From assembly GCA_963788895.1 (NCBI GenBank), contig CAWBJA010000018.1, positions 40,499-104,498 of the forward strand: DNA of 64,000 nt. Direction: 5' to 3'. The notes under the pieces are model-generated. The model saw nothing but the letters and a program-made list of their open reading frames with translations, ran no database searches and was not told the DNA's origin. Shown one piece after another: positions 26,820 through 54,378 of this stretch. How positions within the stretch are numbered: the first letter of the stretch is position 1; each line of letters starts with the position of its first letter. A program made the position numbers and the translations under genes. Origin of the DNA: an uncultured Actinomycetota bacterium (GTDB lineage: Bacteria > Actinomycetota > Actinomycetes > Streptosporangiales > Streptosporangiaceae).

Positions 26820-28320
26820 GCACCCTCTTTCTCAAGGGCACCACTACGGTGCTCGTTGTAGGGACTCGGCGGGAGCCGGGGTGACGGTCTGTTGCGGTCG
26901 CCGGTAGACGGCCTGCATGACACCACCGCCCCCGGTTTCTCCGGGGACACGGACTGGCAACAGGGAGACGCGCCGCAGAGCGCCGGTTAGTGACCGCCCG
27001 GTAGCTGTCCTCCTCGCCGAGTTGCCGTCGCTGCCACCCTGAGGAGCTTCTGTGTCGTTTGCGCTGCCTGATGCGCTGTTTTTCACTGGGATCGACTGGG
27101 CCGCGGAGGTCCATGCCGTGTGCGTGATGGACGCCGCAGGGAAGATCGCGGCGAGTTTCTCCATCGAGCACTCGGCGGACGGGATCGCGCTGCTGATCCG
27201 CCGGCTGGCAAGGTATGGCGAGGCCGCCTGCATGCCGGCCGCGATCGAGCGCCCGGATGGCCGCCTGGCGGACCTGCTGCTGGAGGCCGGGCACCCGGTC
27301 GTGCCGGTCAGCCCCAATGCGATCAAGACCTGGCGGGAAGGCGAGGTTCTGTCCGGCGCCAAGTCCGACGCCGGGGACGCCGTGGTGATAGCCGAGTACC
27401 TGCGGCTGCGCGCGCACAAGCTGCGGGTCGTGCCGCCTTACTCCGATGAGACCCGGGCGCTGCGCACCGTTGTGCGCACCCGCGGCGACCTGGTCGAGAT
27501 GCGGGTCGCGGCCACCAGCCAGCTGCCGGCGCTGCTGGACGCGCACTGGCCCGGCGCTAAGGCCATCTTCGCTGACGTCGAGTCGCCGATCAGCCTGGAG
27601 TTCCTCACCCGCTACCCGACCCCGGCCGCCGCCGCGCACCTGGGCGAGAAGCGGATGGCCGCGTTCTTGATCAAGCACGGTTACTGCGGCCGCCGCACCC
27701 CCGCTGAGCTGCTCGCCCGGCTGCGTGCCGCACCGGCGGGCACCGGCCTGCAGGCACTCGGCGAGGCGCTGCGCGACGCCGTGCTCGCCGCCGCCGGCGT
27801 GCTGGCAGCCCTGAACGCCTCGGTGAAGAACCTCGACCGCTCCGTCGCCGCCCACCTCGGAGAGCACCCGGACGGCGCGATCTTCACGTCGCTGCCAAGG
27901 TCGGGTCAGGTCAACGCCGCCCAGGTGCTCGCCGAGTGGGGCGATGCCCGCCCAGCCTACGAGCACCCCGACTCCGTCGCCGCCCTCGCCGGGGTCACCC
28001 CCGTCACCAGGCAATCCGGCAAGCACCGCTCCGTGAGCTTCCGCTGGGCCTGCAACAAGCGGTTCCGCGCCGCGATCACCACCTTCGCCGACAACAGCCG
28101 CCACGCCAGCCCCTGGGCCGCCAAGATCTACAACGACGCCCGCGCCGCCGGCAAAGACCACCCCCACGCCACCCGCATCCTCGCCCGCGCCTGGATCCGC
28201 ATCATCTACCGCTGCTGGCTCGACGGCGTCCCCTACGACCCATCCAGGCACGGAGCCGCCGCCGCACTCGCCGAACAACCGACTAAGCAAATCGCGGCCT
28301 GAGGTTGACACAGGGAGTGT
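26820..28320 (+). mobile_element. IS110-family insertion sequence (left boundary approximate)
   Basis: The transposase CDS is preceded by a non-coding leader of roughly 230 bp and followed by a very short 3' end, as is typical of the IS110 group. A truncated TPR gene begins immediately after it at 28321. Confidence 0.7.
27052..28302 (+). CDS. IS110 family transposase (DEDD recombinase)
   Basis: 416 aa. The N-terminal FTGIDWAAEVHAVCVMDAAGK belongs to the DEDD_Tnp_IS110 type. The C-terminal LAGVTPVTRQSGKHRSVSFRWACNKRFR belongs to the Transposase_20 type. Confidence 0.9.
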   Translation: MSFALPDALFFTGIDWAAEVHAVCVMDAAGKIAASFSIEHSADGIALLIRRLARYGEAACMPAAIERPDGRLADLLLEAGHPVVPVSPNAIKTWREGEVLSGAKSDAGDAVVIAEYLRLRAHKLRVVPPYSDETRALRTVVRTRGDLVEMRVAATSQLPALLDAHWPGAKAIFADVESPISLEFLTRYPTPAAAAHLGEKRMAAFLIKHGYCGRRTPAELLARLRAAPAGTGLQALGEALRDAVLAAAGVLAALNASVKNLDRSVAAHLGEHPDGAIFTSLPRSGQVNAAQVLAEWGDARPAYEHPDSVAALAGVTPVTRQSGKHRSVSFRWACNKRFRAAITTFADNSRHASPWAAKIYNDARAAGKDHPHATRILARAWIRIIYRCWLDGVPYDPSRHGAAAALAEQPTKQIAA

Positions 28321-28824
28321 CATGCCCGCCAGTCGCTGGCGGCGTTCACGGCCGCGGGTGACCGGGCCGGCCAGGCCGGCGCGCTCAACGCGGCCGGCTG
28401 GTATCAGGCACAGCTGGGCGAGCACGCGCAAGCCCTAGAGCTGTGCCGGCAGGCGCTGGCCATCCAGCAAGAGCTTGGCCACCGGGTCGGCGAAGCTGAG
28501 ACCTGGGACAGCCTCGGCTTCGCTCATCACCACCTCGGCCACGCCGCCCGGGCGATTCACTGCTACCAGCGGGCGCTTGGCTTGCGGCGCGAGCTCGGCC
28601 ACCGGTTCAGCCAGGCGGTCACGCTGGCCCGGCTCGGCGACGCGCACGAGGCGTTCGCCGACCCGCGGGCGGCCCGTGACGCCTGGGCCGAGGGCCTGGC
28701 TATCCTGGACGAGCTGCGCCACCCGGACGCGGCAAGGCTCCGGTCCAAGCTCGGCCCGGCAAACGAATGCGACGATCGCCGCGAGCAGCGCCATGGCAAT
28801 TCGCCGCTGGAAGCTAATTGCTAG
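28321..28824 (+). pseudogene. 5'-truncated tetratricopeptide-repeat protein, the C-terminal end of an AfsR/SARP- or NB-ARC-TPR-type regulator
   Basis: An open frame with no start codon reads ...AGWYQAQLGEHAQALELCRQALAIQQELGHRVGEAETWDSLGFAHHHLGHAARAIHCYQRALGLRRELGHRF.... These are classic TPR units, and the frame abuts the IS110 end. Confidence 0.6.
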
Positions 28825-29889: not shown

Positions 29890-30290
29890 GCCCGGACCGG
29901 CTGCAGCGTGGTGGCTGGGGCTGTTGCATGACGCCGGGAAGGCGTCCTGCGGATGGCAGGACCGGCTGCGTGGAGTGGCAGGTACGGACCGGCCGGTCGG
30001 GCTTGATCACAAACTGCTGGGTGCGCGCCTAGCGCAGGACCGCGGGCTGGCTGCGTTCGCAATGGCGGTGGCTGGGCATCATGGCGGGCTGACGTCCCGG
30101 GCGGATTTAGCTGGACGGCTGAAGGGGCTGACGGATGCTGAACGGGTCCGTGAGGCCGATGCGCTGGTGAGCTTGGACCGGGCGCTGCCTGAGCTAGCTG
30201 ATGGCAGTGCTGTCTCGTGGCCGGATTCGTGGAGGCAGCCGCTGGTCGGGGAGATGGCCTTGCGGCTGTCACCGCTGATGACTCTGCCGC
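29890..30290 (+). pseudogene. remnant resembling a Cas3-type HD nuclease domain
   Basis: The frame-2 translation WWLGLLHDAGKASCGWQDRL...LDHKLLGARL...AVAGHHGGL fits the HD-domain motif series (HDxGK, H, GHHG) seen in Cas3 HD domains. There is no start codon, and the frame switches near 30220. No helicase domain, other cas genes or CRISPR array are present in the window. Confidence 0.3.
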
Positions 30291-30339
30291 GGCGTCAGCG
30301 CCCGCGCCGGCTGCTGCCGGCCGGACGGCGGGCAAGCGC

Positions 30340-30831
30340 CCGGCGGGGGTGTCGCGGTGGGTGAACGCGAACGGCAAGATCTCCCTGGCCGGGTTCTCCT
30401 GCCATGTCGGCGCGGCCTATGCCGGGGAGCCGGTCGAGGTCGTGGTGGCTGGCGGCCTGGTGGACATCCTGCACGCCGGGGTGGTGGCCGCCACCCACGC
30501 GCAGCGGATCCGCGAGGACCAGGCTGACCGGCTGCCCCGCGCCCCGGTGGCCCGCCGCGCCCGGGACGCCACCGCCGGGATCACGGTGACCCGGCTGGCT
30601 GACGGCGCCGGGGTGGTCTGCTTCGCCGGCGCGTCCTACGCGTGCGGCAGGCGGTGGGCCCGTACCGCCATCGACGTGTCGATCGTGGCCGCCTCGGTGC
30701 AGCTGTCCAAGGACGGCAAGGTCATCCGGGTGCACCCGATCCGCCACGACCGTTCCCGCGAGCTCGGCGCCTTCGCTAACCCCAAAGGCCGCCCCCGGCG
30801 CAAGAACTCCGCCCTCGGCAACACCGCCTGA
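30340..30831 (+). pseudogene. C-terminal fragment of an IS481-like (rve / Mu-transposase-C type) transposase
   Basis: ...RWVNANGKISLAGFSCHVGAAYAGEPVEVVVAGGLVDILHAGVV...SVQLSKDGKVIRVHPIRHDRSRELGAFANPKGRPRRK matches the tail of actinomycete IS481-family transposases. No catalytic core is found upstream. Confidence 0.55.
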
Positions 30832-32346: not shown

Positions 32347-32602
32347 GATGGTGTCCCTTCATCGCGGCCATAGCCGAGGTCTTATTCCAGCTCTGGCTGG
32401 GGTCGCTGTGGTTCCCTGGCGAACCACAGCGAAGAGTTGTTGTCTTTGGGGGTTTGAGCTGGTCTTTCGCTGGCAGATTGTGGCTCGCGGAGCGAAGAGC
32501 GGCGAATGGCTGGCCCGCCACCGGTGAACCGACATGCCGCCGCATTCGTCAGGGGAGCAGGGAAGCGGGTTGCTGAGCGGCGGGTTGCTGGGAGGTGACG
32601 TT

Positions 32603-35600
32603 ATGCGGTCCGAGCGGGGACAGGCTGACCTGCCGCCGGGTCCGGTCCGGGAGCTTGCCGATCTGTTCCGGCGACTGCGGCGCCAGCGGCCGCTGTCGGT
32701 CGGCCAGATCGCGGTCGCGACCAGCTTGTCGCCTAGTCATGTTAGTGAGGTGCTGCGGGGGTGGAAGACGCCGAGCCCTCAAGCCGCCGACGCGATAGCC
32801 CGCGCGCTGGGTGCTGGCGCTGAGGAAGCCGCCAAGGCGCACCGGATGGCTGAGCAAGTCCAGGAGCTGAAGCGCTATCTGCGCACGCACAGCGCACCGC
32901 CCGGGGCAGGTCGCCAGCCATGGACGTGGCATTCCCTGCCTGTCCCAGCCGGTGACGGGCACGGGCATCTGGCACGGTTGACGCGTTCGGGGGCAGCCGG
33001 TGACGAGGATCTAGGGTCAGCGGCGTGCTATGAGCCCGTGGTGGAGGTATTCCCGGTGGCGATCGGCCATTACACCGATCCGGGCATGGCAGATCTGGGA
33101 GGCGTCGAGGCGCGGGTGGGGCGGCTGGTGGACCTGCTGGCCGTGTTCGGTGGCCGGCACCGGCCCTGGGCGCAGCCGGCCAGGGAGCGGGGGGCCAGCG
33201 CTGTCCAGCGTCGGCTGCGGGACTGGTCGCGGCCTCCCGCTGCGGCAACTGATACGGGCCGGCGGGCTGGTCTTGGGCTTAGCCCGCCACCTGGGTCGGT
33301 GCTGTACTGGGTGGGGCATGGCTGGTCGGATGGCTTCCGGGCGGTGCTGGCGCACGCCGAAAGCCCGGCGACGGTTGGCGGGTGGGGGCTGGAACCACAG
33401 CAACTGGCGCAGGCCATCCGCGCGCGGCAGGCGGCGATCCCGGCTGGTTGGCAGGGGGCGGGGGCAGGAGGCTGGGCGCTGGTGGTGCTGGACACCAGCC
33501 ACGCCACCCAGGTCGCCGACGCCGTCATGGCGGCGTTGCATGGCCCGGACGCCCCGGGGCGGCTGCTGCTGGTCGCCGTCCCGCATGACGACGCCGCGCC
33601 AGCGGCCGGGTTCGGCGACGTGCTGGCGGCTCTACTGGCCAGCACGTACCGGGCCGAGCGCCAGATCCTGCTGCGTGACCTGGCCAGCCAGCTGGAACGG
33701 GTGCTGGGCCCGGGCAACGTGTATCAGCGGGGCTTGGGTGAGGCGGCGCTGGTGCGGACCTACCCGCCTGTGGCGTCGTGGATGTCAGCGCCGGTGGATA
33801 CCATCCGCCACCTCGAAGAGGTCCTGGCGAGCCTGCCCGCCGATGAGCGCAGCCATTTCGTGGGCAAGGCGCAGGGTGCCGAACAGGGCGAGTTGTGCTG
33901 GTTCTTCGAAGGCCGCCAGCAGGAAGCCGGGCAGATCAGCACCTGGCTGCACCAGGCCCTCTCCGGCATGCTGGTGGTCACCGGACGCGCCGGATCAGGC
34001 AAGTCCGCGCTGCTCGGCAGCGTGCTGGTGCACTCGCTGCCCGGCCTGCGCGACGCGCTGGCCCGCCGCGGGCTGATCACCATGCCCGGGCCCGCCAGCC
34101 TGCCCCCCGACGGAGTGTTCGACGCTGTTATTCATCTCAGCGGCCTGACCCTGCAGCAGGCCACCGGCCGGGTGGCCGCCGCCGCAGGCCTGGGTCGGCT
34201 GCCGTCGCAGACCGACTCTGCCCTGGGGGTGGCCAACGACCTGGACTGGCTAACCGACCGCTTGCCGGCGATGCTGGAGGGCCGGGGCCGACCGCTGACG
34301 ATCCTGGCCGATGCCCTCGATGAGGCCATCGACCCGCTGGATACCGCCCGGGCGCTGCTAGCCCGGCTCGCGGCTCTGCCCCAGGTGCGGGTGCTGGTGG
34401 GAACCCGGGCCTCCACCAGCGAAACCCCTGACACCCCCGCAGGCGATAACGATCTACTGCGCGCTTTGAGCGCCGATCTCCCCTCGCCAGGTGCGCAGGG
34501 CGGCCCGGGACTGGTGCGGGTTGGCCGCGACAGCCAGGCGATCAGCCGCTATGCGGCCCGCCGTCTGCGGCACGCCCGCGACTACGGCCTGGGCGGGGGC
34601 GCCATTCCCGCCATGACTCACGTGCGTGATGCCGACATTGACCGGGCCGCTGGGGCCATCGCCGCCCGGGACCGGGAATTCCTGTTCGCCCGCTTGGCGG
34701 TCTACGAGCTGATCGAGGATCCCACGTTCCTGCTGCCCGGTCGGGCCGCTTCCTTGGATCAGCTCCTGCGCGGCGATCACCAGGACCTGTTCGCCAAGGC
34801 CCTGGACCGCCTCGCCCGCCTCGATGACCACTACGAGCCGCTGATCCAGGCCCTCGCCCTGGCCCGCGGCCGCGGCATCCCCGAGGCCGATGGCATCTGG
34901 GCCACCATCGCCGCCGCCTTCACGACAACGCCCGGGCACCCCAGACCCCCCGGGGATCCCAGCACCAATGGCCTGGCACCCCGGGCGTGGGCGCGCGCCA
35001 TCCAAGGCCTGCTCAGCCATGCCGCCGCCTACCTCGTGGTCGATACCGCAGACGAGGGGCAGCGCGCAACGGTCTACCGGCTGGCACACCGCACCTTCGT
35101 GGAGTACTTCACCAGGACCCGGCAGGCCAGCACCGCCCACCGGGACCGGCAACGCCACGCGGCCAAGGCATTGCTAGACCGAGCGCGTCAGATCGCGGCT
35201 GCCGATCCCGGCGGCATGCCTGCCTATCTAGCCCGGCATCTGACTGGGCACATCGGCGATGCCAGGCTCTGGGACAGCCTGGCCGCTACCCCCCGCGTCC
35301 TGGACGGCCTCCATCCCGCCGCGGTGACCACTGATGCCCTGCGCACTCTATTCGGCCGCCGGGCCATCCCCGCGCCCATCGCCGGGATCATCGGCGCCCG
35401 CGACGACCTGCTCACCGCCTCACCCGCAGACCGCGCGGCCTGCGGCAACTCGCCAGCACCACCCATAGCCCCCGGCGCGTTCCCGGCGAGCCTTGCCACC
35501 AGTGGGGGATCGCAGCCGCTCAGGCCGGGCAGGTCAGTATGCACATCCGGCTCACCGGCCACACCGCTCCCGTCGCCGGTGTGTGCGTCCTGCCGCTGCC

Positions 35601-38553
35601 CGGCGGGCGCACCTCGGTCGCCTCCGCCAGCGACGATGGCACCATCCGGCTGTGGGACCCTCAGACTGGTGCGCCCATCGGAGCACCGCTGACCGGCCAC
35701 ACCGGCACCGTCGAGGGTATCTGCGCCATTTCGCTCCCGGACCAGAGCACGGTGCTGGCCTCAGCCAGCAGCGATGGGACGGTGCGGGTCTGGGATCCGG
35801 TCACCGGCCGGCCGGTCGGCGGGCCGCTTACCGGTCACGCCGGGCCTGTGCTCGGGGTGTGCGCGGTGCCGGGGACTGGCGGGCCGGGCGGGCGGACCTG
35901 GATCGCCTCCGCCGGGACCGATGGGACGGTGCGGGTCTGGGATCCGGTCACCGGCCGGCTGGTCGGCGGGCCGCTGACCGGTCACGCCGGGATCGTGGCC
36001 AGCGTGTGCGCGGTGCCGGGGACTGGCGGGCCGGGCGGGCGGACCTGGATCGCCTCCGCCGGGGATGACGGGGCGGTGCGGGTCTGGGAGCCGGTCACCG
36101 GCCGGCTGGTCGGCGGGCCGCTGACCGGTCACGCCGGGCCTGTGCTCGGGGTGTGCGCGGTGCCCGGGACTGGCGGGCCGGGCGGGCGGACCTGGATCGC
36201 CTCCGCCGGGACCGATGGGACGGTGCGGGTCTGGGATCCGGTCACCGGCCGGCTGGTCGGCGGGCCGCTGACCGGTCACGCCGGGACTGTGCTCGGGGTG
36301 TGCGCGGTGCCCGGCGGCTGGCGGGCCGGGCGGGCGGACCTGGATCGCCTCCGCCGGGACCGATGGGACGGTGCGGGTCTGGGATCCGGTCACCGGCCGG
36401 CTGGTCGGCGGGCCGCTGACCGGTCACGCCGGGACTGTGCTCGGGGTGTGCGCGGTCCCGGCGGCTGGCGGGCCGGGCGGGCGGACCTGGATCGCCTCCG
36501 CCGGAGCCGACGGGACGGTGCGGGTCTGGGATCCGGTCACCGGCCGGCCGGTCACAAGGCCCTTGGTATCCAATCACGTCGGCGCCGTGCGCAGCGTGTG
36601 CGCGGTCCCGGCGGCTGGCGGGCCGGGCGGGCGGACCTGGATCGCCTCCGCCAGAGCCGACGGGACGGTGCGGGTCTGGGATCCGGTCACCGGCCGGCTG
36701 GTCGGCGGGCCGCTGACCGGTCACGCCGGGACTGTGCTCGGGGTGTGCGCGGTCCCGGCAGCTGGCGGGCCGGGCGGGCGGACCTGGATCGCCTCCGCCG
36801 GGGATGACGGGACGGTGCGGGTCTGGGATCCGGTCACCGGCCGGCTGGTCGGCGGGCCGCTGACCGGCCACGCCGGCGGCGTGCGCAGCGTGTGCGCGGT
36901 GCCGGGGACTGGCGGGCCGGGCGGGCGGACCTGGATTGCCTCCGCCGGGGATGACGGGGCGGTGCGGGTCTGGGATCCGGTCACCGGCCGGCTGGTCGGC
37001 GGGCCGCTGACTAGTCACGCCGGCGGCGTGCGCAGCGTGTGCGCGGTGCCGGGGACTGGCGGGCCGGGCGGGCGGACCTGGATTGCCTCCGCCGGGGATG
37101 ACGGGGCGGTGCGGGTCTGGGAGCCGGTCACCGGCGGCTGGTCGGCGGGCCGCTTACCGGTCATACCGGGCCTGTGCTCGGGGTGTGCGCGGTGCCGGGG
37201 ACTGGCGGGCCGGGCGGGCGGACCTGGATTGCCTCCGCCGGGGATGACGGGGCGGTGCGGGTCTGGGAGCCGGTCACCGGCCGGCTGGTCGGCGGGCCGC
37301 TTACCGGTCATACCGGGCCTGTGCTCGGGGTGTGCGCGGTGCCGGGGACCGGCGGGCCGGGCGGGCGGACCTGGATCGCCTCCGCCGGGACCGATGGGAC
37401 GGTGCGGGTCTGGGATCCGGTCACCGGCCGGCTGGTCGGCGGGCCGCTGACCGGTCACGCCGGGCCTGTGCTCGGCGTGTGCGCGGTGCCGGGGACTGGC
37501 GGGCCGGGCGGGCGGACCTGGATCGCCTCCGCCGGGGATGACGGGGCGGTGCGGGTCTGGGATCCGGTCACCAGCCGCCCGGTCGGTGAACCACTGACCA
37601 CTTCGCAGGCTCCCGTGGCAGCGCTGCAGCCACTCAGAATCACAGACGCGGCCTGCGCAGTCGTGCGCTCGGCCGGATACCTGCACCTATGGAAGCCCGC
37701 CACCGGCACGCTGACCCCCGCAGCGACCCCGACCCCGCACGTGTCAGCGTTCGCCGAACTCACCACCAAGACCAACTCCCCCCGCGTGTGGATCGTCGCC
37801 GATCCCAGCGGCCTGCTGACCCTCATCACGCCTACCCGGGGCGCCCCGTCCCGCACTACCCGCCTCGGCGACACCATTCTTAGCCTGCTGTCCATCCCCG
37901 GCCAGCCACCCCAGCTTGCCTGCGCCAGCCGCAACGGGACCATCGCTCTCCTGCACGCCGACACCCTGCGCCCGGCCGGGCCGCCGCTGACCGGCCATGA
38001 CGGTCCTGTGCGCACCCTGTGCTTGCTGACCACCCCTAATAGCCCTGCCATCCTCGCCTCCGCTGGACACGACGCCGCCATCCGGCTCTGGGATCCCAGC
38101 GGCAGAACCGCCATCGGAGGGCCGCTGACCGGTCACGACGGCTGGATCTGGGCACTAACCGCCATTCCCGCCACCAGCCCGGACACCACCCTGCTCGCGT
38201 CCGCGGGCGCCGACGCGACGATACGGATTTGGGATCCCCGCACCGGCGAAGCCGCCATGCCGCCGTTGACCGGCCACACCGGCCAAGTCCGAGCCCTCAC
38301 CCTCGCCGTGGCCGCAGACGGCAGCACGCTCCTGCTGTCGGGCGGCCACGACGGCACGATCCGGCTCTGGCACCCCGTCACCGGCCAGGCCATCCACGCC
38401 ATCCCGCTCGGCGTGCCGGTCCATGCTCTGCTCCAGCAACCCCTTGACCACCGCTCCCGCCAGCGCACCGCCAACGGGGCAACCATCGTCGTCGGCCTGC
38501 GCACGGGCATTCTCAGCCTCGACCTCAACCGGTCGATGTTCCCCGTACGATAA
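32603..38553 (+). pseudogene. NLR/STAND-type protein of about 1980 aa with domain order HTH, caspase-like domain, NACHT-type P-loop NTPase, about 20 WD40 repeats; interrupted by three single-nucleotide frame changes
   Basis: SD GGGAGG plus the ATG at 32603. XRE-like HTH (SVGQIAVATSLSPSHVSEVLRG). Caspase-like dyad context: LYWVGHGWSDG (GHG at 33314-33322) and ALVVLDTSHA (33491-33505). Walker A GRAGSGKS at 33983-34006 and Walker B LTILADALDE. WD units carry the LTGH...VRVWD signature. The frame changes lie at about 35440-35530, about 36312 (+1) and about 37130 (-1). Confidence 0.8.
35824..37590 (+). repeat. array of 12 near-identical 147-bp (49-codon) WD40 repeat units
   Basis: The unit is LTGH(A/T)G(P/T/I/G)V(LG/AS/RS)VCAVP(GT/AA)GGPGGRTWIASAG(T/D/A)DG(T/A)VRVW(D/E)PVTGRLVGGP. 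The nucleotide copies are nearly identical. Divergent WD units flank the array on both sides. Confidence 0.9.
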
Positions 38554-38835: not shown

Positions 38836-39800
38836 CGAACCTGTGCCGCTCGTAACTAGGATTCTGGCCTTGACCTGGGTCTTTTCGGTCTTCAGGCGGC
38901 TCGCTCGTACTCGTTGATCAGGCCGCCCAGGACCGGTTTTGGGCGGATCCGACAGGTGCCGAGGTCTGCTGCGGTGATGGGAGCGGGGTCAATGTCCGGG
39001 ACGCGCTGGCCGATGCCCTGATGGGGACGAGCGGTGTTGTAATGCTTCTGGTATTCGGCCAGGACGAACCGCAGGTGTGCCCGGTTGAGGATCAGGGTCC
39101 GGTCGAGGAGCTCACGGCGCAGGGTGCCGATGAGGCGCTCGCAGATCGCGTCATCCGTGGCGACTGGACGGCGGTGCGCACGATGGTGGTGCCGGTGGCC
39201 TGGAAGACGGCGTCGAAGGAGGCAGTGAAGTTCGAGCCGCGGTCGCGGATCAGGAACCGGAAGTCCCCGAACCGTCCGCCGAGTTCAAGGGCCAGGTTGC
39301 GGGCCTGTTGCACCGTCCAGGCGCCGGTTGGGTGGGCGGTGACGCCGCCGATGTACATCCGGCGAGTGCCGTGCTCGATGAACACCAGGACGTACAGCCT
39401 GGTCAGCATCACGGTGTCGACGTGCAGGAAGTCGACGGCGAGGACCCCGGCGGCCTGCAGGAACTGCCGCCAGGTCGGTCCGTCCCGGCGCGGCGCCGGG
39501 TCGATGCCCGCCGCGCGAGGATCTCATAGGCGGTGGACGCCGCGACCGCGGCGCCAAGCTTGGTCAGCTCGCCGTGAATACGCCGGTAGCCGCAGAAGGG
39601 GTTCTCGTGCGCCAGGCGGATGGCGAGCCGGGCGATGCTCCGGATCGTCGCCGGCCGGCCGGGCCGCCGCCGCTTGCTACGGCCACCCGCCCGTGGCTCA
39701 TGGGCGCGGCGACCCGCAGGCCGCGGCCGGCCTCGGGCTCACCACTGCCGCCCGTGCCTTTCTTGAGCGGGTGCATCAGTACTGGTGCGGCCAGTTCGGG
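38836..39800 (-). pseudogene. rve-integrase type IS transposase (IS481/IS3-like), 5'-truncated with several frameshifts (copy 1)
   Basis: The minus-strand translation gives ...RRIHGELTKLGAAVAASTAYEIL..., then FLHVDTVMLTRLYVLVFIEHGTRRMYIGGVTAHPTGAWTVQQARN..FRFLIRDRGSNFTASFDAVF.., then MNAICERLIGTLRRELLDRTL...LINEYERAA*. These pieces are spread over different frames. One example is the loss of an A in ATGA(A)CGCG. Confidence 0.7.
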
Positions 39801-41754: not shown

Positions 41755-42105
41755 TTATGCGGCGGCGCTCGGGGTGGTGTCGCTGACAGGCAGTCGTACG
41801 GTTCGGTCGCCGAAGTCGGCGACTAGGTCTAGACGCCCTCCCAGGGCCTCTACGTACCGGGCGATGACCTCAAAGGAGGTCACCTCGCCGTGCTCGATCT
41901 GGGACACGCGGGCTACGCTCACGCCCATCGCGCTGGCGATGCTTCTTTGCGCCAGGCCCAGGTGCTTGCGGGTCTCGGCGAGCTGGTGCCCGCGGGCCAG
42001 GGCGAGCAGCTGGCGTGCCCCTGCCTCGATCTCGCCGGGGGAGACGCCGGCCGCGTGAAGTTCCCGCTCTAGGGTTTCCCAGTCCTGCGGGGTGCGCTTC
42101 GGCAT
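41755..42105 (-). CDS. XRE-family HTH antitoxin (HigA-like)
   Basis: 116 aa. The HTH is KHLGLAQRSIASAMGVSVARVSQIEHGE. It starts 5 bp downstream of the toxin gene stop. Confidence 0.7.
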   Translation of the reverse strand: MPKRTPQDWETLERELHAAGVSPGEIEAGARQLLALARGHQLAETRKHLGLAQRSIASAMGVSVARVSQIEHGEVTSFEVIARYVEALGGRLDLVADFGDRTVRLPVSDTTPSAAA

Positions 42106-42110
42106 ATTCC

Positions 42111-42473
42111 TTACTCCTGGTCTTCGGCGGTGTAGTCGAGGTACAACTGCTCGGCGAGCGGGATGTTCTCGCGGTACCACCGCTGCCAGTTGCCGGCCTT
42201 GTCGCCGCCGAGCAGCAGCAGCGCCGACCGGGCGGGGTCGAACGCGAAGATGATCCTTATCTCGGACCGGCCTCGCGATCCGGGACGCAGTTCCTTCAGG
42301 TGGTGAATCCTGGCGCTCTTGAGCCGGTCTACAAGGGGACGGCCGAGCGTCGGCCCCTCCTCGCGCAGGGCCGCGACCGCCTGGGCCACCTGGACCGCCG
42401 ACCCGAGATCCTCCTTGATCAGCAAGGTGAACCACTCGGCATACTCGTCAGTGACCTTCACCGCCCAAGCCAA
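42111..42473 (-). CDS. RelE/ParE-superfamily toxin, HigB / Gp49-like
   Basis: 120 aa. The segment IHHLKELRPGSRGRSEIRIIFAFDPARSALLLLGGDK fits the ELR...iRiiF...vlL..gdK toxin pattern. Toxin-first gene order, as in higBA. Confidence 0.7.
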   Translation of the reverse strand: MAWAVKVTDEYAEWFTLLIKEDLGSAVQVAQAVAALREEGPTLGRPLVDRLKSARIHHLKELRPGSRGRSEIRIIFAFDPARSALLLLGGDKAGNWQRWYRENIPLAEQLYLDYTAEDQE

Positions 42474-42775
42474 GCAACCCTCCTGAATTCAAGGCACAGC
42501 TTAACTTTAGTTGCCGATGCTACCTGATGCAACCGAAGGGCACGGCAGACTCGCCCGGCAACTCAAGCGCCCCAGCAGCGAGGCCGATGGCATCACCGAA
42601 CCCGCCGAAGCTTCCGTAGCGAGCGGCGACGCCAACGACGTCCGGGCCCGCACCGACCATGCGCGGGTCGCTGAATGCCGCAATCATCGGCATCGCCCAG
42701 ATTCGCCATTCTGCGTGGCCAGGACCGCAGGCAAGTGGCACTCTGGGCCGATCAGAGCGGCGGATTGGACGTTTA

Positions 42776-45091: not shown

Positions 45092-45831
45092 GCACACCGG
45101 GAACGGAACGGGGGCATCGATCGCCAGGCGTGCGCAGATCGCCCACTCTGGTGCCCGGCAGCGATCACGCCTTCCAGACAAGGAACCGCCCATAACGGCG
45201 GCTACGTGCGCGCCTCCACCATGGAACGCCCTCATACCAGGTAATCGCGCTGGCCGCCACCGGGCAGCTCGGCATGGCCGCCGCTGGGCAGATCCGGCTG
45301 CCCGTCGTCAGCCGCGTGCCGTCGTTAACGGTCAGGGCAGCAGTCTCCCGCATCGGGCACCAGCCGCTCGTCACCTCCTGTCGCGTGGCCGATCGTGAGT
45401 TGAACCGGATGCGCTGGCTTGATACCTGTGACGGAGTTGAGCGTCCATCGGTGGTCAGAAACCTAAGGCAGACCGACGCAGGTTCATCGCTGTCCTCGCA
45501 CCCGGCAGACGATCGCGTGCGGATCGTGTCGTTGAAGTGCTGCACGCGACTCAAGGCCGCCGGAAGTCTTTGCACCACGATTCTGGCTAGCCGGCGTACG
45601 AGTTACGTGCAGTACAGGTCACACGCGGCCCGGCACGGCACGGCACCGCCCGCGCGGCCCGGCTCGCCGGGCATGTCCGCCCCGCAGCTGGACACCCGCC
45701 CCCGGTTCCAGCGTCGTTTCAGCGTCGTTTCAGCGCTGTGTTCTAGCGTGCAGCGTCATCAGGCACTACCGAAGCTGGCGCCGCGATCGGCGTGACAGCC
45801 GGCGGCCCGGCGGGCGGCAAGGACGAAGGGG

Positions 45832-46401
45832 ATGGCGATGAGACTGCGCAGACTGGCGCTTGTGCTGGCGGCCGGTGTGCTGGCGGCCGGGATGAGCGCC
45901 GGCACCGGCGGGACGGCACAGGCGGCGACGGCCGACCTGGTGTCGCCAAGCCCTGGTTCCACGGGCGCCTGGTACGAGATCTATGCACCGCTGATCAACC
46001 ACTCCAGCTTCTACCAGTGCCTGGATGTGCCGTACGCGTCCGTTCAGCCCTATCAGGCCGTACAGGCGTATCACTGTCATGGCTACGATTCCAGCGGCGC
46101 CAACCAGCGCTGGAAGTTCTGGCCGAACGGTGACGGCACGTACCAGATCCAGAACGTGAACAGCCAGCTGTGCCTGGAAGCCTTCGTGTTCGGGGTTCCG
46201 CCGGTCTGGCAGTACTACTGCGACGGGTTGCAGGATGAGCGCTGGCGGATCATTTCCGGAATCGGCGGCCAGTTCGAGCTGACCATCCTGACGTCGCCCG
46301 GATATTGCCTGGCCGTGCACAACGTCTCAGGCGATTCGAGCGCTGTCTGGCTCCAGCCCTGCAACCCGGGCGGCGCCCTGCTGACCTGGCAGCTCGGCTA
46401 G
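45832..46401 (+). CDS. secreted ricin-type beta-trefoil lectin domain protein
   Basis: Signal peptide MAMRLRRLALVLAAGVLAAGMSAGTGGTAQA. Three Q/E-x-W-type subrepeats (NQRWKF, DERWRI, LTWQL) with conserved Cys. Confidence 0.7.
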   Translation: MAMRLRRLALVLAAGVLAAGMSAGTGGTAQAATADLVSPSPGSTGAWYEIYAPLINHSSFYQCLDVPYASVQPYQAVQAYHCHGYDSSGANQRWKFWPNGDGTYQIQNVNSQLCLEAFVFGVPPVWQYYCDGLQDERWRIISGIGGQFELTILTSPGYCLAVHNVSGDSSAVWLQPCNPGGALLTWQLG

Positions 46402-48702: not shown

Positions 48703-48791
48703 GGCTCTGGCTCAATTGTCGTGAGGCGGTCTGCCCGGCGTGTCCGGTGGCGTCGTGATCATCATGTTTGTGATCATGCGGGGCGTGCGAT

Positions 48792-49436
48792 CTTGAGGTT
48801 CTCACCGTCCTGCTCCCGCACCTGGCCGGCCTGGCGTTCGAGGGTGCCGTCACTGCGGGCAGGTCGGTGCATGTGCTGGCCCGGGCCTGTGCCAGCGGGG
48901 CAGCCTGCCCGGGCTGCGGCGTGGTGTCGCGGCGGGTGCACAGCCGATATGAGCGGAGGCTGGCCGATACCGCGAGCGGCGGCCAGGAGGTGCTCATCTG
49001 CTTGCAGGCCCGCCGGTTCTTCTGCGGTAACGACGCGTGCGTGAAGGCTACGTTCGCGGAGCAGGTACCGGGCCTGACCACCCGCTATGGCCGGCGCACC
49101 CGCGGCCTGGATGGCGTGCTGCAGGCGGTCGCGCTGGCCCTGGGCGGCCGGGCCGGTGCCCGGCTCACTGGCCGGCTGGCCTGCTCAGCGAGCCGGTCCA
49201 CGCTGCTGCGTCTGATCCGTGCCGCGCCTGACCCTGATAGCGGGACCGTGCTGGTGCTGGGCGTTGATGACTTTGCCCTGCGCAGGGGGCATGTCTACGG
49301 CACCGTGCTGGTCGATATCGAGACCCGGCGGCCGGTGGACATCCTCCCGGAGCGGTCCGCGGAGTCCTTCCGGTCATGGCTGGACGCCCACCCGGGCACG
49401 GAGATCATCTGCCGGGACCGCGGTGGCTGCTACGCC
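48792..49436 (+). pseudogene. ISL3 family transposase, N-terminal part (interrupted; start codon unclear)
   Basis: ...[40 protein letters not shown]...[42 protein letters not shown]...[10 protein letters not shown] stops abruptly at 49436. Confidence 0.85.
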
Positions 49437-49564
49437 AACCCTCGGGAATTGCATCTGACGGGCGTGTTTTCGCTGGTCGCCTGATGAGGGGCGTTCCGCA
49501 ATAGCCGCGGGCCGCTGGTGAGCGATGCTGTCTGACCTCGCCGGTTGCGTGATGATCCCGTCTG

Positions 49565-50710
49565 GTGAATGATCCTGCCTTCAAACGGAAGAGATTTGAG
49601 GGGCTGGAGGGCGGGTTGGGGCGAGACGAGCTGGCTGGCGCGGCGCGCCTGGAGCTGGTGTCCGGGGTGGCTCAGCTGCGGCCCGAGGATGCGATGCTCG
49701 ACGCGATGCTGCGGGGCTGGCGGGCGCAGCAGAAGTCGCGGGGGATGCGAGATGAGACGGCCGGCGACCGGGAACGGCTGGTCCGCCGGTTCTGCGAGTT
49801 CACCAACGAGTATCCGTGGCGCTGGACGGCCGGTCACGTGGATGAGTGGTCGGCGTACCTGACGGGCGAGCGGCACCTGGCACCGTCCACTATCCGCGCT
49901 TACCAGGGCGATGTGCGGTTGTTCACCGAGTTCCTCATCGACGCCCGCTATGGCTGGGGACCGGCATGCGAGGAGGCCTTCGGCACCTACCCGGTGGCGA
50001 TCTGTCATGAGTGGAACACCCTGGCTCATCTCAACGACTATGAGGGCAGCCCGGAGGCCAGGCCGTTCACCCGCGAGGAGCTGCAGCGTTTCTTTGACTA
50101 CGCCGACGAGCAGGTCGAGCGGGCGGTGCGGTCCGGGCGCAAGGGCGCCCTGGCCGCCTACCGGGATGCCACCATTTTCAAGGTCATCTACGGGTGGGGG
50201 CTGCGCCGGAACGAGACGGCCAGGCTGGATGTGGCCGACTTCGGCCGCAACCCGCGGGCGCCGCAGTTCGGCCGGTACGGCACGCTCAACGTCCGCTATG
50301 GCAAGGCGAAGAAGGGCCAGCCTCCGCGGCGCCGGAACGTGCTGTCGGTGATGGGCTGGGCGGTGGAGGCCGTCGCTGACTATGCCGAGAACGTCCGTCC
50401 CCGGTTCGGTTACGCCGATCATCCGGCGCTGTGGGTCACCGAGCGGGGCAGCCGGGTCAGGCCGTCGGAGATCAACGCCCGGTTCGTGGCCTACCGGGAC
50501 GCGCTAGGGCTGCCCGCCGCGCTGACGGTGCACTCTGAGCGGCACGCCTACGTCACGCACCTGACCGAGGACGGCGTTGACCGGCGCTTCATCCAGCAGC
50601 AGGTCGGCCACGAGTGCGACAGTTCCACCGCCGTCTATACCCACGTCAGCGATGACTTCATGAATACGGCCCTGAGCAGGGCACTGGCTCCGGCATTCGC
50701 CGGCGTGTGA
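49565..50710 (+). CDS. tyrosine-type recombinase/integrase (381 aa)
   Basis: Catalytic pattern GLRRNE (Arg), HSERHAY (H-x-x-R), VGHECD (His) and AVYTHV (Tyr). Confidence 0.85.
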   Translation: MNDPAFKRKRFEGLEGGLGRDELAGAARLELVSGVAQLRPEDAMLDAMLRGWRAQQKSRGMRDETAGDRERLVRRFCEFTNEYPWRWTAGHVDEWSAYLTGERHLAPSTIRAYQGDVRLFTEFLIDARYGWGPACEEAFGTYPVAICHEWNTLAHLNDYEGSPEARPFTREELQRFFDYADEQVERAVRSGRKGALAAYRDATIFKVIYGWGLRRNETARLDVADFGRNPRAPQFGRYGTLNVRYGKAKKGQPPRRRNVLSVMGWAVEAVADYAENVRPRFGYADHPALWVTERGSRVRPSEINARFVAYRDALGLPAALTVHSERHAYVTHLTEDGVDRRFIQQQVGHECDSSTAVYTHVSDDFMNTALSRALAPAFAGV

Positions 50711-51069
50711 GGAGGCGAGCCTGGATGGGCGGCAAGCTGGATTACCGCTGGCACCTGCGCAAGGTCATGGCGGACCGCGGGATGTTCTCCACGACCGACC
50801 TGATCCCGCTGCTGGCCGACCGCGGGATCACCTTGTCTTCGAGCCAGGTCTACCGCCTGGTCGTGGAGCGGCCCGAGCGATTGGGCCTGAAGATCCTCAT
50901 GGCGCTGCTGGACATCCTGGACTGCACGATGGATGACCTCATCGAACCCGTCGCCGCACCTGGCGCCGCCCAGCGGCCTAGGAAGGCCGCGGCCGGCGGA
51001 ACGGCGGACGCCGCGGGCGTCGGTGCCCTGCGCCCGAAGCGGGCGCGGGTCACCGGGACGCCGCCGTGA
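50707..51069 (+). CDS. small helix-turn-helix (XRE-like) protein
   Basis: Overlaps both neighbouring genes by 4 nt. The segment LRKVMADRGMFSTTDLIPLLADRGITLSSSQVYRLV is HTH-like. Confidence 0.6.
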   Translation: MRRRAWMGGKLDYRWHLRKVMADRGMFSTTDLIPLLADRGITLSSSQVYRLVVERPERLGLKILMALLDILDCTMDDLIEPVAAPGAAQRPRKAAAGGTADAAGVGALRPKRARVTGTPP

Positions 51070-53057
51070 CAGGCAGCTCCGGCAGGCCAGCTTCGGGTGA
51101 TCCGGTCGATGGCCTGCTCACCTTGCTGTCGGAGCTGGAACCGGTCCTGAGCCCGGAGGTGGTCTTGGAGGCCCTGGGGCAGGCGGCTGCCCGCCCCGAC
51201 GGGCGGCGCCGCATCGCCCGGTCCGTAGCGGACCGGCCCAGCCTGCTCACCGGCCAGGGCGCTCGCGCCGAGTTCCCGGGCGTCTTGCGGTTCATCAGCG
51301 CCCTGGTCAAGGCTGGCGCTGTCGCCGTGATCGAGCCGCCGTGTCCGCGCTGCGGCAGGCACATGCAGCTCAGCGCCCTGGTCGACGGACTGCGCCTTTG
51401 TGCCGGGTGCGTCAAGAAGGCGCGGGCACTGCGCTGCGGCCGGTGCGGCGCGGTGAGGTCCCCGGCTCGCCGCAACGACAACGGGCAGGCCATCTGCCAG
51501 AACTGCTGGCGCCGGGACCCGCGCAGCTGGAAACCTTGCGCCAGGTGCGGGAACTGCCGGCGCGTCGCCGCGATCACCGGGGCCGGGCCGGTCTGCCAGA
51601 GTTGTCGGCCGGGTCCCGCTGTTGCCTGCAGCATCTGCGGGTTAGCCGGCAGCCGGATCGGCATGTCACGGGCGACCGGCACGCCGGTATGTGAGCGGTG
51701 CCGCAAGCGCTGGATCACCTGCTCGCGCTGCGGCAGCGGGGCGCCGCTGAAGGGAGGCACGCTGGGCGAGCCGTTGTGTGCGCACTGCCTCAACCCCGAC
51801 CCTGCCTTCTGGAAACGGTGCGCGGTCTGCCAGGTGACCTGGCAGCTGTCGGCAGCTGAGTGCACGCGCTGTTCCCTGGACCGGAAACTGAAGCAGATCT
51901 GCACCCCGCCCGGCGGCACCGCCGCACCGGAGCTGGACCGGCTGCGCGAGGCCCTTGTCCGCGTCGACCGTCCCGACCTCATGCTCGACTGGCTGAAGAC
52001 GGCCGGCGTCCGCTGCGCCCTCCAGGCTGTCGCAGCCCACCGCGCCATAACGCACGAGGCGCTCGACACGCTGCCGCCGGGCCGCACCCTGGTCCACCTG
52101 CGGTCGATGCTGGTCGCCACGGGCGCGCTCCCCGCCCGGGACGAGCGCCTGGTCGCGCTGGAACGCTGGATCGGCCAGGTCATCGCCGAGCGCACGTCTC
52201 CCGAGCACCGGCGCGCCCTGCACGGATACGCCGTCTGGCACCAGCTGCGCCGGCTGCGCAGCCGGCTCCAGGCCCAGCCCGCCTCCCGCCAGCAGGTGAA
52301 AAACGTCCGTGACCAGGTCACCGCCGCCGCAGCGTTCCTGGACTGGCTAGAGGCGCGCGGGCTGACCCTGGCCGCCTGCACCCAGGCCGAGCTGGACCGG
52401 TGGCTGGCCGGGAACTCTAGCTACCTGGCCCGGTCGGCGAACTTCGTGCGATGGGCCGTGGCCCGCCGCCACGCCTCCCGCCTCACTGCCCCGTCATCAC
52501 GCTGGACCGGCCCAGCCGGGCCGCTTGACCAGGACCGCCGGTGGGCAGACGCGCGCCGGCTCCTGCACGACGACACCTGCCCGGCCGCCGACCGGGTCGC
52601 CGGGCTGCTGATCCTGCTCTACGCACAGAAACTCAACGTCATCACGGCGCTGACGATCCAGCATGTCCTGCACCAGGACGGCCGCACGCTCCTGCGCCTG
52701 GGCAGCAGGCCCATCGTGCTGCCCGCCCCGCTGGACGCCCTCGTCGGTGCGCTTGCGGCCGGCCGCAAGGCACCGGGCACCAGCCTGCTCGACGTCCCTT
52801 CCTCCTGGCTGTTCCCGGGACGCCGGCCAGGAAGCTCGCTGACCGAAGACGCGCTCGCCCAGCGGCTCCATGCCCTCGGGATCAGCCCGCGCCAGAGCCG
52901 TAACACAGCCCTGTTCACCCTGGCCGCCGACGTCCCGGCCGCGATCCTGGCCAAGACGCTCGGCATCCACATCAAGGCGGCCATCCAGTGGCAGAAGATC
53001 TCCGGCGGGGACTGGGCCGCCTACGCCGCCGACGTCGGCAGCCGCCTGGAACACTGA
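51066..53057 (+). CDS. large integrase-like protein (663 aa) with six tandem 4-Cys zinc-ribbon units and a divergent C-terminal recombinase-type domain
   Basis: Twelve CxxC pairs lie between residues 93 and 269 (nt 51342-51872). The C-terminus is WLFPGRRPGSSLTEDALAQRLHALGISPRQSRNTALFTLAADVPAAILAKTLGIHIKAAIQWQKISGGDWAAY. This resembles the end of actinomycete integrase-like proteins, but the canonical R-H-R-Y residues are hard to place. Confidence 0.6.
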   Translation: MTGSSGRPASGDPVDGLLTLLSELEPVLSPEVVLEALGQAAARPDGRRRIARSVADRPSLLTGQGARAEFPGVLRFISALVKAGAVAVIEPPCPRCGRHMQLSALVDGLRLCAGCVKKARALRCGRCGAVRSPARRNDNGQAICQNCWRRDPRSWKPCARCGNCRRVAAITGAGPVCQSCRPGPAVACSICGLAGSRIGMSRATGTPVCERCRKRWITCSRCGSGAPLKGGTLGEPLCAHCLNPDPAFWKRCAVCQVTWQLSAAECTRCSLDRKLKQICTPPGGTAAPELDRLREALVRVDRPDLMLDWLKTAGVRCALQAVAAHRAITHEALDTLPPGRTLVHLRSMLVATGALPARDERLVALERWIGQVIAERTSPEHRRALHGYAVWHQLRRLRSRLQAQPASRQQVKNVRDQVTAAAAFLDWLEARGLTLAACTQAELDRWLAGNSSYLARSANFVRWAVARRHASRLTAPSSRWTGPAGPLDQDRRWADARRLLHDDTCPAADRVAGLLILLYAQKLNVITALTIQHVLHQDGRTLLRLGSRPIVLPAPLDALVGALAAGRKAPGTSLLDVPSSWLFPGRRPGSSLTEDALAQRLHALGISPRQSRNTALFTLAADVPAAILAKTLGIHIKAAIQWQKISGGDWAAYAADVGSRLEH

Positions 53058-53061
53058 CCAG

Positions 53062-53403
53062 ATGCCAGGTCTGCCTGAACTCGACATCGCCCGCGTCCGC
53101 CGCTGGTGCGGGCAACGCGTCCCTGAGCATGCCCGCGACCAGGTCCGGGTGGAATGCGACATCGCCCCGCGGCACCTGACGATCGTCGAGTGCCGTCCGC
53201 CGTGGCGCCAGGGCACCGGCCCGGAATGGACACGGTTCCCCATCGCCCGGCTCCGCTACACCCAGGCCACCAGGACCTGGACCTTGTACTGGCGCGACCG
53301 TAACCTGCGCTTCCACCTCTATGCCCAGCTCGAGCCGTCACCGGAAGTTGGTGACCTGCTGGACGAGATCGACGGCGATCCAGTCGCGATCTTCTGGGGA
53401 TAG
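53062..53403 (+). CDS. DUF3024 domain protein
   Basis: RVRRWCGQRVPEHARDQVRVECDIAPRHLTIVECRPPWRQGTGPEWTRFPIARLRYTQATRTWTLYWRDRNLRFHLY matches my recollection of the DUF3024 signature. Confidence 0.6.
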   Translation: MPGLPELDIARVRRWCGQRVPEHARDQVRVECDIAPRHLTIVECRPPWRQGTGPEWTRFPIARLRYTQATRTWTLYWRDRNLRFHLYAQLEPSPEVGDLLDEIDGDPVAIFWG

Positions 53404-53454
53404 CCCGTCCAGGCTGAGGCATTCAGAGTGTTTCAATACCTGACTGTGCCATTA

Positions 53455-54378
53455 GAAGGCGCCACCGCGGGCGCGCCGCTGGCCATCCAGGTCGCCGACC
53501 GGTGGCATCTGTGGCACAACCTGGCCGAAGCGGTCGAGCGTGCCGCCGGCCGCCACCGCCCCTGCCTGCAAGAATCACCACCTGCCCACCCCGGCCCCGA
53601 GCCGGCCCCGGCTGCCCCGCGGGCTGCTGAGGCAGGACTGGCCGCGCGGACGCGGGCCCGCCATGGCGAGGTTCACGCCGCGCTGGGCCGCGGGCTGACC
53701 ATCACCCAGATCAGCCGCACCCTAGGACTGGAACGCAAGACCGTGCGCCGCTACGCCACCGCCGCCACCCCAGACCAGCTGATCTCCGGCACCCGCCTGA
53801 CCCGGCCGGGGCTGCTCGGCCCCCACCAGGCCTACCTGCGCCAGCGCTGGGACGAAGGCATCCGGAGCACCGAACGGCTGCACGCCGAACTGCGCGAACG
53901 CGGCTACCGCGGCAGCCTGCGCACCCTGCGCCGGCTCACCGCCCAACTGCGCCAGCACACTGCCATCCCGGCGCCGCCGCCAGCGCCTGCGGCCAGGAAA
54001 GTGGCCAGCTGGATCCTCACCCCGCCCGGCAAGCTCGCCGACGCTGACCGCGCCGCGCTCGCGCAGATCACCGCCCGCTGCCCCGAACTCAGCGCCACCC
54101 GGGAACTGGTCCGCGACTTCGCGGACATGCTCTGCCACCGCCACGGCGAGTGCCTGGAAGCCTGGGCTGCGCAGGCCGAAAGCAGCCCGGTCAGCGAGCT
54201 GCGCAGCTTCAGCAAAGGACTCCGCAAAGACTGGGCCGCCGTCACCGCCGGGCTCACCGTCCCCTACAGCTCGGGCCCGGTAGAAGGCCACGTCAACCGC
54301 ATCAAGATGATCAAAAGACAGATGTACGGCCGGGCGAAACCCGACCTGCTCCGAAAACGCGTCCTGCTCGCCAACTGA
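53455..54378 (+). pseudogene. ISL3 family transposase, C-terminal part
   Basis: EGATAGAPLAIQVADRWHLWHNLAEAVE...GPVEGHVNRIKMIKRQMYGRAKPDLLRKRVLLAN is the canonical ISL3 DDE C-terminus. Confidence 0.85.

Follow-up and report, generated by a model that had tools for sequence, protein, structure and literature searches.

Can a bacterial protein resembling the nucleotide-binding leucine-rich repeat (NLR) receptors keep a caspase domain that has lost its catalytic cysteine and act on gene expression instead of cutting proteins? This question is raised by a gene on the + strand (32603-38553) of contig CAWBJA010000018.1, which stems from an uncultured member of the Streptosporangiaceae. All positions refer to the whole stretch of 64,000 nt that was analysed, called the window below. 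The gene encodes in one polypeptide an NLR-like protein of the STAND class (signal transduction ATPase with numerous domains), consisting of an XRE helix-turn-helix (HTH), a caspase-fold domain, an Apaf-1-like STAND NTPase, and about 21 WD40 blades. An earlier inspection of the letters alone (the sequence-only reading) had proposed a similar order of modules, and its effector-NTPase-repeat, NLR-like interpretation was right. The explanation that we favour, with a probability of roughly 0.6, is that the protein is an NLR-like sensor with a pseudo-caspase, that its output now runs through the HTH, and that the frame breaks in its gene are assembly errors.

The predicted caspase fold of the middle domain

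The middle domain comprises residues 143-408 (266 aa; 33029-33826). Direct sequence searches with it were empty, including Pfam (with residues 100-450), NCBIfam, PADLOC, phmmer against the PDB, and the A1 profile against the PDB. The fold emerged solely via structure prediction. An AlphaFold (AF2) model of the domain was obtained with a predicted local distance difference test score (pLDDT) of 73.6 and a predicted template modelling score (pTM) of 0.78. When it was compared with the PDB using Foldseek, the top 50 hits all belonged to the caspase family, with a probability of 1.00 and template modelling (TM) scores of about 0.5. The matches include MALT1 (E 2e-5, TM 0.53), CED-3, caspase-9, -4, -3, -7 and -11, Dronc, a yeast metacaspase, and the bacterial protein GSU0716. 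The MALT1 matches recurred for the middle domain in a second, better model that spans residues 143-945. As judged from these models, the middle domain adopts a caspase fold, which agrees with the caspase/C14 call that had been made from two short motifs. The predicted alpha/beta fold is that of the caspase-hemoglobinase clan CD, while neither of the curated sequence models, Pfam Peptidase_C14 and CHAT, is matched by the query protein.

Relatives of the query come closer to these models, and what the sequence methods show, although in the twilight zone, is in agreement with the fold. Peptidase_C14 was found below the threshold in three of them (17.6-18.2 bits; cut-off 21.4), and the matches of P0082 and P0148, the two seen in detail, span both motif sites. 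A CHAT-protease chain (8tl0) gave a weak alignment (E 0.74), in which ILHFIGHG is placed on VLYWVGHG and VVLNACCT on VVIDACRS. A phmmer search of the PDB with the Cys-bearing relative P0131 yielded only PsbQ and YopM, which were rejected as spurious.

Replacement of the catalytic cysteine

In the canonical caspase arrangement, the catalytic His follows one strand and the nucleophile follows the next core strand. Both models of the query have this arrangement. The His (G96-H97-G98 in domain numbering) comes directly after strand 89-95/96, and the Ser comes after the next core strand, 149/150-155/156, as assigned with DSSP. In the gene, the GHG motif is located at 33314-33322 (GGGCATGGC) and puts His239, directly after the modelled beta-strand, at the position of the catalytic His; YWVGHG is near-invariant in the family. 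The second motif, DTSHA (33491-33505), puts Ser299 (AGC at 33497-33499) at the position of the catalytic Cys, where homologues have DxC[RQKHG]S and the CHAT alignment places NAC.

A census of both sites in 181 aligned homologues revealed that Cys dominates by far. The combination H+C is present in 143 of them, followed by H+S (22), H+G (3), and single cases of H+T, H+E, H+A, and Y+S (P0025). At 41 loci from species-representative genomes, H+C was found in 39; the exceptions are L001 (R+S) and L002 (H+S). The two motifs that the sequence-only reading had named as dyad sites thus coincide with the conserved His and Cys of the family, and the CHAT alignment agrees. The Ser that it had noticed in place of the nucleophilic Cys is also real, and the query therefore does not have the catalytic His-Cys dyad.

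The nearest genomic relative, L001, comes from a metagenome-assembled genome (MAG) of the Streptosporangiaceae. It has an intact open reading frame (ORF) of 1,909 aa with the architecture and the C-terminal tail of the query. Its motifs, LYWAGRGW and IIVETSHAT, show that His has been replaced by Arg and Cys by Ser, while the whole protein has been kept. The Cys-site motif of L002, ETSTHAT, has one inserted residue. At this locus (L002 14688-15572, likewise from a Streptosporangiaceae MAG), the frame changes near the 3' end of the WD40 region, and the conserved tail lies in another frame.

Two possibilities had been put forward for the domain, an inactivated fold or an enzyme with a Ser nucleophile. 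Because the Cys site varies between Ser, Gly, Thr and Glu in close kin and the intact L001 has also lost the His, the sequences argue for a pseudo-protease and against a Ser-nucleophile enzyme, and the first possibility is thus favoured. Caspases are routinely inactivated by exchanging their Cys for Ser. Natural examples, regarded as inactive, are the pseudo-orthocaspases and those Trypanosoma brucei metacaspases that have Ser in place of the Cys (PMC6426788).

The domain family and its DNA-binding fusions

Using residues 97-452, 37 close homologues were found. When 1.84 billion cluster representatives were searched with a profile, 392 of them were matched at E <= 1e-3 and 160 at E <= 1e-30. 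In the 392 representatives, the domain is mostly located at the extreme N-terminus of proteins of 1,300-2,000 aa. The caspase-fold domain of the query thus belongs to a sizeable actinomycete family, in which it is normally N-terminal on STAND-WD40 proteins and has a His-Cys dyad. The nearest relatives of the query are in the Streptosporangiaceae. In a neighbour-joining tree all Cys-less copies, which are all close kin of the query, form one clade, in which Ser, Gly, Thr or Glu occupies the Cys site.

The presence of the HTH is also unevenly distributed. The Cys-bearing relatives begin at the caspase domain and have no HTH, and their apparent upstream extensions are non-coding read-through. The HTH is fused to the domain in the query, L001, L002, P0034, P0038 (with Glu at the Cys site), and P0039, which has kept the Cys. 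In the tree, P0039 is positioned near the base of the clade of dead copies. From this distribution it appears that the query clade acquired the N-terminal HTH and then lost the Cys.

A second type of DNA-binding fusion is nested in the dead clade. The proteins P0003-P0032, with a length of about 550 aa, are fusions with a Streptomyces antibiotic regulatory protein (SARP), in which Trans_reg_C and BTAD are followed by a C-terminal Cys-less domain (ETSHA); they do not contain an NTPase, which marks the dead domain as a module in its own right. One such gene, L042 4674-6299, adjoins nonribosomal peptide synthetase (NRPS)-type genes (Condensation, MbtH), a major facilitator superfamily (MFS) gene, and a second SARP gene. 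This setting suggests a cluster-situated antibiotic regulator that bears a pseudo-caspase module. An NLR gene was sought beside one SARP-pseudocaspase gene, and NRPS-type genes were found instead. A further architecture of the domain family is represented by P0035 (488 aa), in which a Cys-bearing caspase-fold domain (DTCRS) is followed by a C-terminal TIR domain, again with no NTPase.

The HTH, the NTPase, and the WD40 repeats

The XRE-like HTH that the sequence-only reading had seen at the N-terminus belongs to the XRE family. It is encoded at 32651-32833 and matches Pfam HTH_31 far beyond chance (E 6.3e-11, 42.9 bits; cut-off 27) and also HTH_3 (E 1.5e-4). HTH_31 is above the Pfam cut-off in P0038 and P0039 as well.

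The NTPase (33827-35437) consists of nucleotide-binding, helical, and winged-helix domains. The G, K and S columns of its Walker A motif, GRAGSGKS (33983-34006), are invariant throughout the family, and the D..DE columns of its Walker B motif, ILADALDE (34301-34324), are invariant or nearly so. The Walker A motif, as well as GHG and DTSHA with its AGC codon, is located exactly where the sequence-only reading had placed it, and the DALDE of Walker B that it had named is present too. It had also assigned the P-loop to the NACHT class. The DALDE of Walker B indeed resembles the D-G-x-D-E motif of NACHT domains. However, the query has no match to Pfam NACHT (PF05729). The Pfam matches at the P-loop are weak, namely nSTAND1 (PF20703; 24.6 bits, below the cut-off of 27.1, over 170 residues), AAA_16, and NPHP3_N, with 25.2 bits versus a cut-off of 24.8 over 33 residues that cover the P-loop only. 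The sister protein P0038 reaches 27.4 bits with nSTAND1 and is thus barely over the cut-off. At the sequence level, nSTAND1 seems to be the nearest model. It has been defined in conflict proteins with an effector-STAND-repeat architecture, including caspase fusions (PMC8195603).

The second AF2 model (residues 143-945), for which a deeper alignment was used, has a pLDDT of 85.9 and a pTM of 0.87. The top Foldseek match of the NTPase in the PDB was ADP-bound Apaf-1 (1z6t; E 3.8e-8, 574 aligned columns). It was followed by Cdc6/Orc1, MalT (8bob), CED-4, and SAMD9, while NLRC4 and NAIP5 were found lower, at ranks 19-23. A P-loop NTPase with Walker A and B motifs is thus joined to helical and winged-helix domains within a tripartite output-NTPase-repeat architecture. 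Taken together, the NTPase is securely of the STAND type and looks Apaf-1/nSTAND1-like. The Walker motifs of the earlier proposal are present, whereas the label NACHT is not secure, as neither Pfam nor the fold ranking backs it.

The WD40 region (35539-38553; Pfam WD40 E 1e-26 to 1e-39) contains about 21 blades, close to the roughly 20 of the sequence-only reading, and corresponds to roughly three propellers. Two divergent blades are followed by 12 near-identical units of 49/50 aa and by 6-7 divergent C-terminal blades. The near-identical units are encoded by a tandem array of 147 bp units (35772-37586), for which Tandem Repeats Finder (TRF) reported 12.3 copies with 92% identity; the units are 86-98% identical to one another. 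When 11 in-register units were compared, the encoded amino acid differed at 11 of the 49 codons. The variable patches are chiefly positions 17, 19-20, 26-27, 41 and 44, and another 9 codons show synonymous variation only. Near-identical units with few variable positions imply, at the level of sequence, unequal recombination and diversification, and the array looks like a recombining, diversifying sensor surface. Similar WD40 arrays are present in L001 and L002.

The reading frame and its breaks

The gene is represented by four overlapping ORF pieces on the + strand (32534-35692, 35539-36807, 36371-37450, and 37174-38553), the frames of which alternate (2/1/2/1). An alternative ATG is present at 32534. 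The frame breaks were placed by cross-comparison of the tandem units and by reading all three frames over each junction. At the first break (35440-35441) one base is missing after 35440 (GGCC^TG), between ADRAA and LRQLAS; the orthologous stretch of L001 and L002 is ADRPGLRQLATT. The second break (36309) is one extra base within the tandem array, where GTGCCCGGCGGCT stands versus GTCCCGGCGGCT in the next unit, resulting in a unit of 148 bp versus 147 bp. At the third break (37135-37136), also in the array, one C is missing after 37135 (GGC^GG versus GGCCGG in all other units), and this unit has 146 bp versus 147 bp.

Bridging of these three slips of 1 nt results in one frame, as had been proposed. 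Read from the ATG at 32603, this frame has a product of 1,983 aa and only the terminal stop, while the other two frames contain 34 and 36 stops. The G+C content at third codon positions (GC3) holds at 0.85-0.89 downstream of the breaks. The repaired product agrees with the intact L001 ORF in architecture and C-terminal tail and is colinear with it down to the last residues.

Similar breaks were found in genes of a very different kind. The window opens with 26 kb of core chromosome, which contain mreB, mreC, mreD, the PBP2 gene, a radical SAM gene, rne, rplU, rpmA, obg, and nadD. The mreB gene (2800-3831) is broken near 3576, and its conserved C-terminus carries on in another frame. The PBP2 gene (6946-9162) has two breaks, one near 7395 and the other near 8300. 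At the latter, a C is missing from a run of C, and the transpeptidase domain is thereby cut in two (positions 142/152 of the profile). The density of breaks is alike: the cell-shape genes, which are conserved, have three in about 7 kb, and the target gene has three as well. The breaks in mreB and the PBP2 gene indicate that indel errors occur throughout the assembly. Because these genes of the same window carry comparable breaks, the three breaks of the target gene are probably assembly errors and not signs of gene death. In addition, the second and third breaks are within a tandem array of 80% G+C, which is prone to error because consensus calling is hardest in such an array. The best match to the locus among GTDB species representatives is only 60-67% identical.

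Genomic setting

The gene is situated at the edge of an accessory region that is rich in remains of mobile elements, which confirms the IS-rich setting of the sequence-only reading (IS, insertion sequence). Upstream, an IS110 transposase gene (27043-28302) is directly followed by an ORF of 171 aa with TPR only (28309-28824), which may be the remnant of a repeat-bearing, possibly STAND-type, gene that was truncated by the insertion. Fragments of a Mu-transposase gene (30202-30831) and of an rve gene (39092-39523, - strand) are also present. A HigB/HigA-like pair on the - strand (about 41800-42488), with an ORF for a Gp49/HigB-like toxin (42111-42488) and then an XRE-HTH antitoxin-like ORF, is likely a toxin-antitoxin pair. 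Further downstream, an ISL3 transposase gene (48774-54378) is interrupted; its N-terminal part is found at 48774-49484 and its C-terminal part at 53404-54378. The DNA inserted in the middle contains a tyrosine integrase gene (49556-50710), an HTH_26 gene (50656-51069), and an ORF of 692 aa with no Pfam family (50982-53057). IS21 istA/istB are also present downstream of the gene.

The low-GC gene for a secreted protein that had been described as a neighbour was not identified. The nearest candidate, an ORF for a ricin-type beta-trefoil lectin (45796-46401), is 7 kb away and possibly the one that was meant. Within the window there is no second copy of the caspase-fold domain. No neighbouring gene is conserved with L001 or L002, and therefore the protein appears to act alone.

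Proposed mechanism and alternative explanations

In the favoured explanation, the WD40 propellers would be the sensor, with the variable patches located in a recombining tandem array. By analogy to Apaf-1, MalT and bacterial Avs, the propellers would hold the NTPase closed, and ligand binding would lift this autoinhibition. The NTPase would then exchange its nucleotide and oligomerise, and thereby gather the N-terminal domains. In the Cys-bearing relatives, induced proximity would activate the N-terminal caspase. In the query clade the output would have been rewired to the HTH, leading to DNA binding and a transcriptional response; because the caspase is dead, the HTH is the sole plausible output left. 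The caspase fold works as a dimer in active relatives. The dead domain might still serve for dimerisation or as a scaffold, pairing or spacing the HTHs and thereby making DNA binding dependent on assembly. In the simplest history, the HTH would have been gained first, the protease would then have become dispensable and died, and a different DNA-binding domain would later have been joined to the dead domain. DNA binding, oligomerisation and ligand sensing by the query protein are predictions based on analogy. A more far-reaching scenario is doubtful and only tentatively put forward, namely that an NLR lineage switched its output from proteolysis to transcription by HTH gain and caspase death, kept the domain as an assembly or adaptor module, and that the dead domain spread to SARP regulators of antibiotic clusters.

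Several observations weigh against the explanation as a whole. Three indels within 6 kb of IS-rich DNA would also fit a recently dead gene. The neighbour-joining tree of the clade has no support values. The equivalence of the dyad sites rests on family conservation, on strand ends in the models, and on the weak CHAT alignment (E 0.74). The His and the motif GHGWSDG are conserved in most dead copies, and ETSHA is well conserved in the SARP group; this conservation could mean that binding or another activity has been retained, and that the domain is not a mere scaffold. In addition, neither a conserved neighbour gene nor a candidate operator was found around L001 and L002.

The conserved motifs lead to the alternative that survives best, although it is unlikely. 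The dead domain might bind peptides as a decoy, act as a sensor, or be a dominant-negative, cFLIP-like partner of Cys-bearing paralogues or of SARP-pseudocaspases, and homotypic contacts might link the NLR-like protein with other effectors. The His motif on the side of the pocket is conserved, and the presence of the dead domain on separate SARP regulators resembles the logic of effector-associated domains (PMC8195603). Dominant-negative or peptide-binding roles have been proposed for inactive caspase domains (PMC7159879). However, a partner with a second copy of the domain is missing from the window, and no NLR is encoded beside the one SARP fusion that was examined.

It is rather improbable that the gene is a true pseudogene, that is, an NLR-like gene that decayed very recently in IS-rich accessory DNA by three genuine frameshifts. 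Three breaks within 6 kb, the flanking transposase fragments, and the relative L002, which is likewise frame-broken near its 3' end, would all be in accordance with decay. Yet single breaks hit the conserved mreB and PBP2 genes at a similar density, which points to assembly error, and a repaired frame with no internal stop, an intact codon bias, and a product that stays colinear with that of the intact L001 ORF right to its end are not what a dead gene would be expected to show.

An anti-phage sensor of the Avs/bNACHT type, in which the HTH is a mere autoregulatory or DNA-sensing add-on and killing takes another route, is improbable. The NLR-like architecture, the hypervariable repeats, which are typical of conflict systems, and the location in accessory DNA would fit such a role, and sensing of phage proteins has been described for related STAND families (PMC13581612). 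On the other hand, no PADLOC protein model of a defence system, be it Avs, bNACHT or another, was matched beyond noise (HTH_VI E 0.007, capH 0.012, PDC-M16A 0.07), and once the caspase is dead no recognisable toxic effector is left, nor is there a Pfam NACHT match. The weakest alternative, an active protease with Ser299 as nucleophile and His239, is highly improbable, because, although His239 and its GHGWSDG context are kept and Ser replaces the Cys more often than any other residue (in 22 of about 30 Cys-less copies, with ETSHA/DTSHA conserved), close relatives have Gly, Thr, Glu or Ala at this site, the His has become Arg in the intact L001 and Tyr in P0025, and Ser at the Cys site is known both as the usual way to inactivate caspases and from the inactive natural homologues mentioned above.

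Comparison with known systems

Caspase-STAND-WD40 proteins are bacterial look-alikes of the animal apoptosome. If the more far-reaching scenario of a lineage that switched its output is true, the clade would contain a bacterial counterpart of the cFLIP-type pseudo-caspases and would tie NLR-like sensing to gene regulation, possibly including secondary metabolism. The clade may also show how the output of NLR-like sensors shifts from killing to transcription. The clade also offers a natural series on how a caspase that does not cut is used, from active domains with no HTH, via HTH plus active domain (P0039), to HTH plus dead domain (query, L001) and SARP plus dead domain. The practical value is modest. 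Earlier publications already cover the architecture and the occurrence of dead caspases in bacteria, and no new biochemical activity is indicated. The part worth pursuing is the link between the gain of an HTH or SARP and the loss of the caspase nucleophile.

A literature search did not find an experimental study of this actinomycete family of caspase-STAND-WD40 proteins. However, caspase-STAND-WD40 proteins and dead bacterial caspase homologues as such have been described (PMC13581612, PMC8195603, PMC7159879, PMC6426788), inactive caspase domains have been found at effector positions (PMC7159879), and effector modules that are HTH domains are known too (PMC7159879, PMC8195603). The bacterial proteins with a caspase, an Apaf-1-like NTPase and WD40 repeats (PMC13581612) have their order of modules in common with the query, and the Cys-bearing majority of the family fits them directly. 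The query differs from them in its additional N-terminal XRE HTH, in the missing catalytic Cys, and in an NTPase that is borderline nSTAND1/NPHP3_N rather than NB-ARC.

The dead domain has its counterparts in the pseudo-orthocaspases (PMC6426788), the inactive caspase domains of vWA-MoxR systems (PMC7159879), and cFLIP. In these cases too the fold has been kept under selection after loss of the dyad, and Ser is a recurrent replacement. Those inactive caspases are mostly stand-alone p20 proteins, such as cyanobacterial ones with Tyr-Ser dyads, or are part of ternary systems. In contrast, the dead domain of the query is flanked by an HTH on one side and a STAND NTPase on the other, and the His is kept in most copies.

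The repeat array is reminiscent of fungal NLRs of the HET-E/-D/-R type, which have WD40 repeats of high internal conservation (PMC13449251). Near-identical tandem units with few variable positions are present in both, while the differences concern kingdom, N-terminal domains and the 49-aa unit; this likeness is inferred from the pattern of variation. For the proposed output, the closest parallels are MalT, GutR, and AfsR (SARP + NB-ARC + TPR). The DNA-binding domain of MalT is C-terminal and that of AfsR is a SARP domain, and neither has a caspase fold or WD40 repeats. Nevertheless, a DNA-binding domain, a STAND NTPase and a repeat sensor are combined in these regulators, as they are in the query protein.

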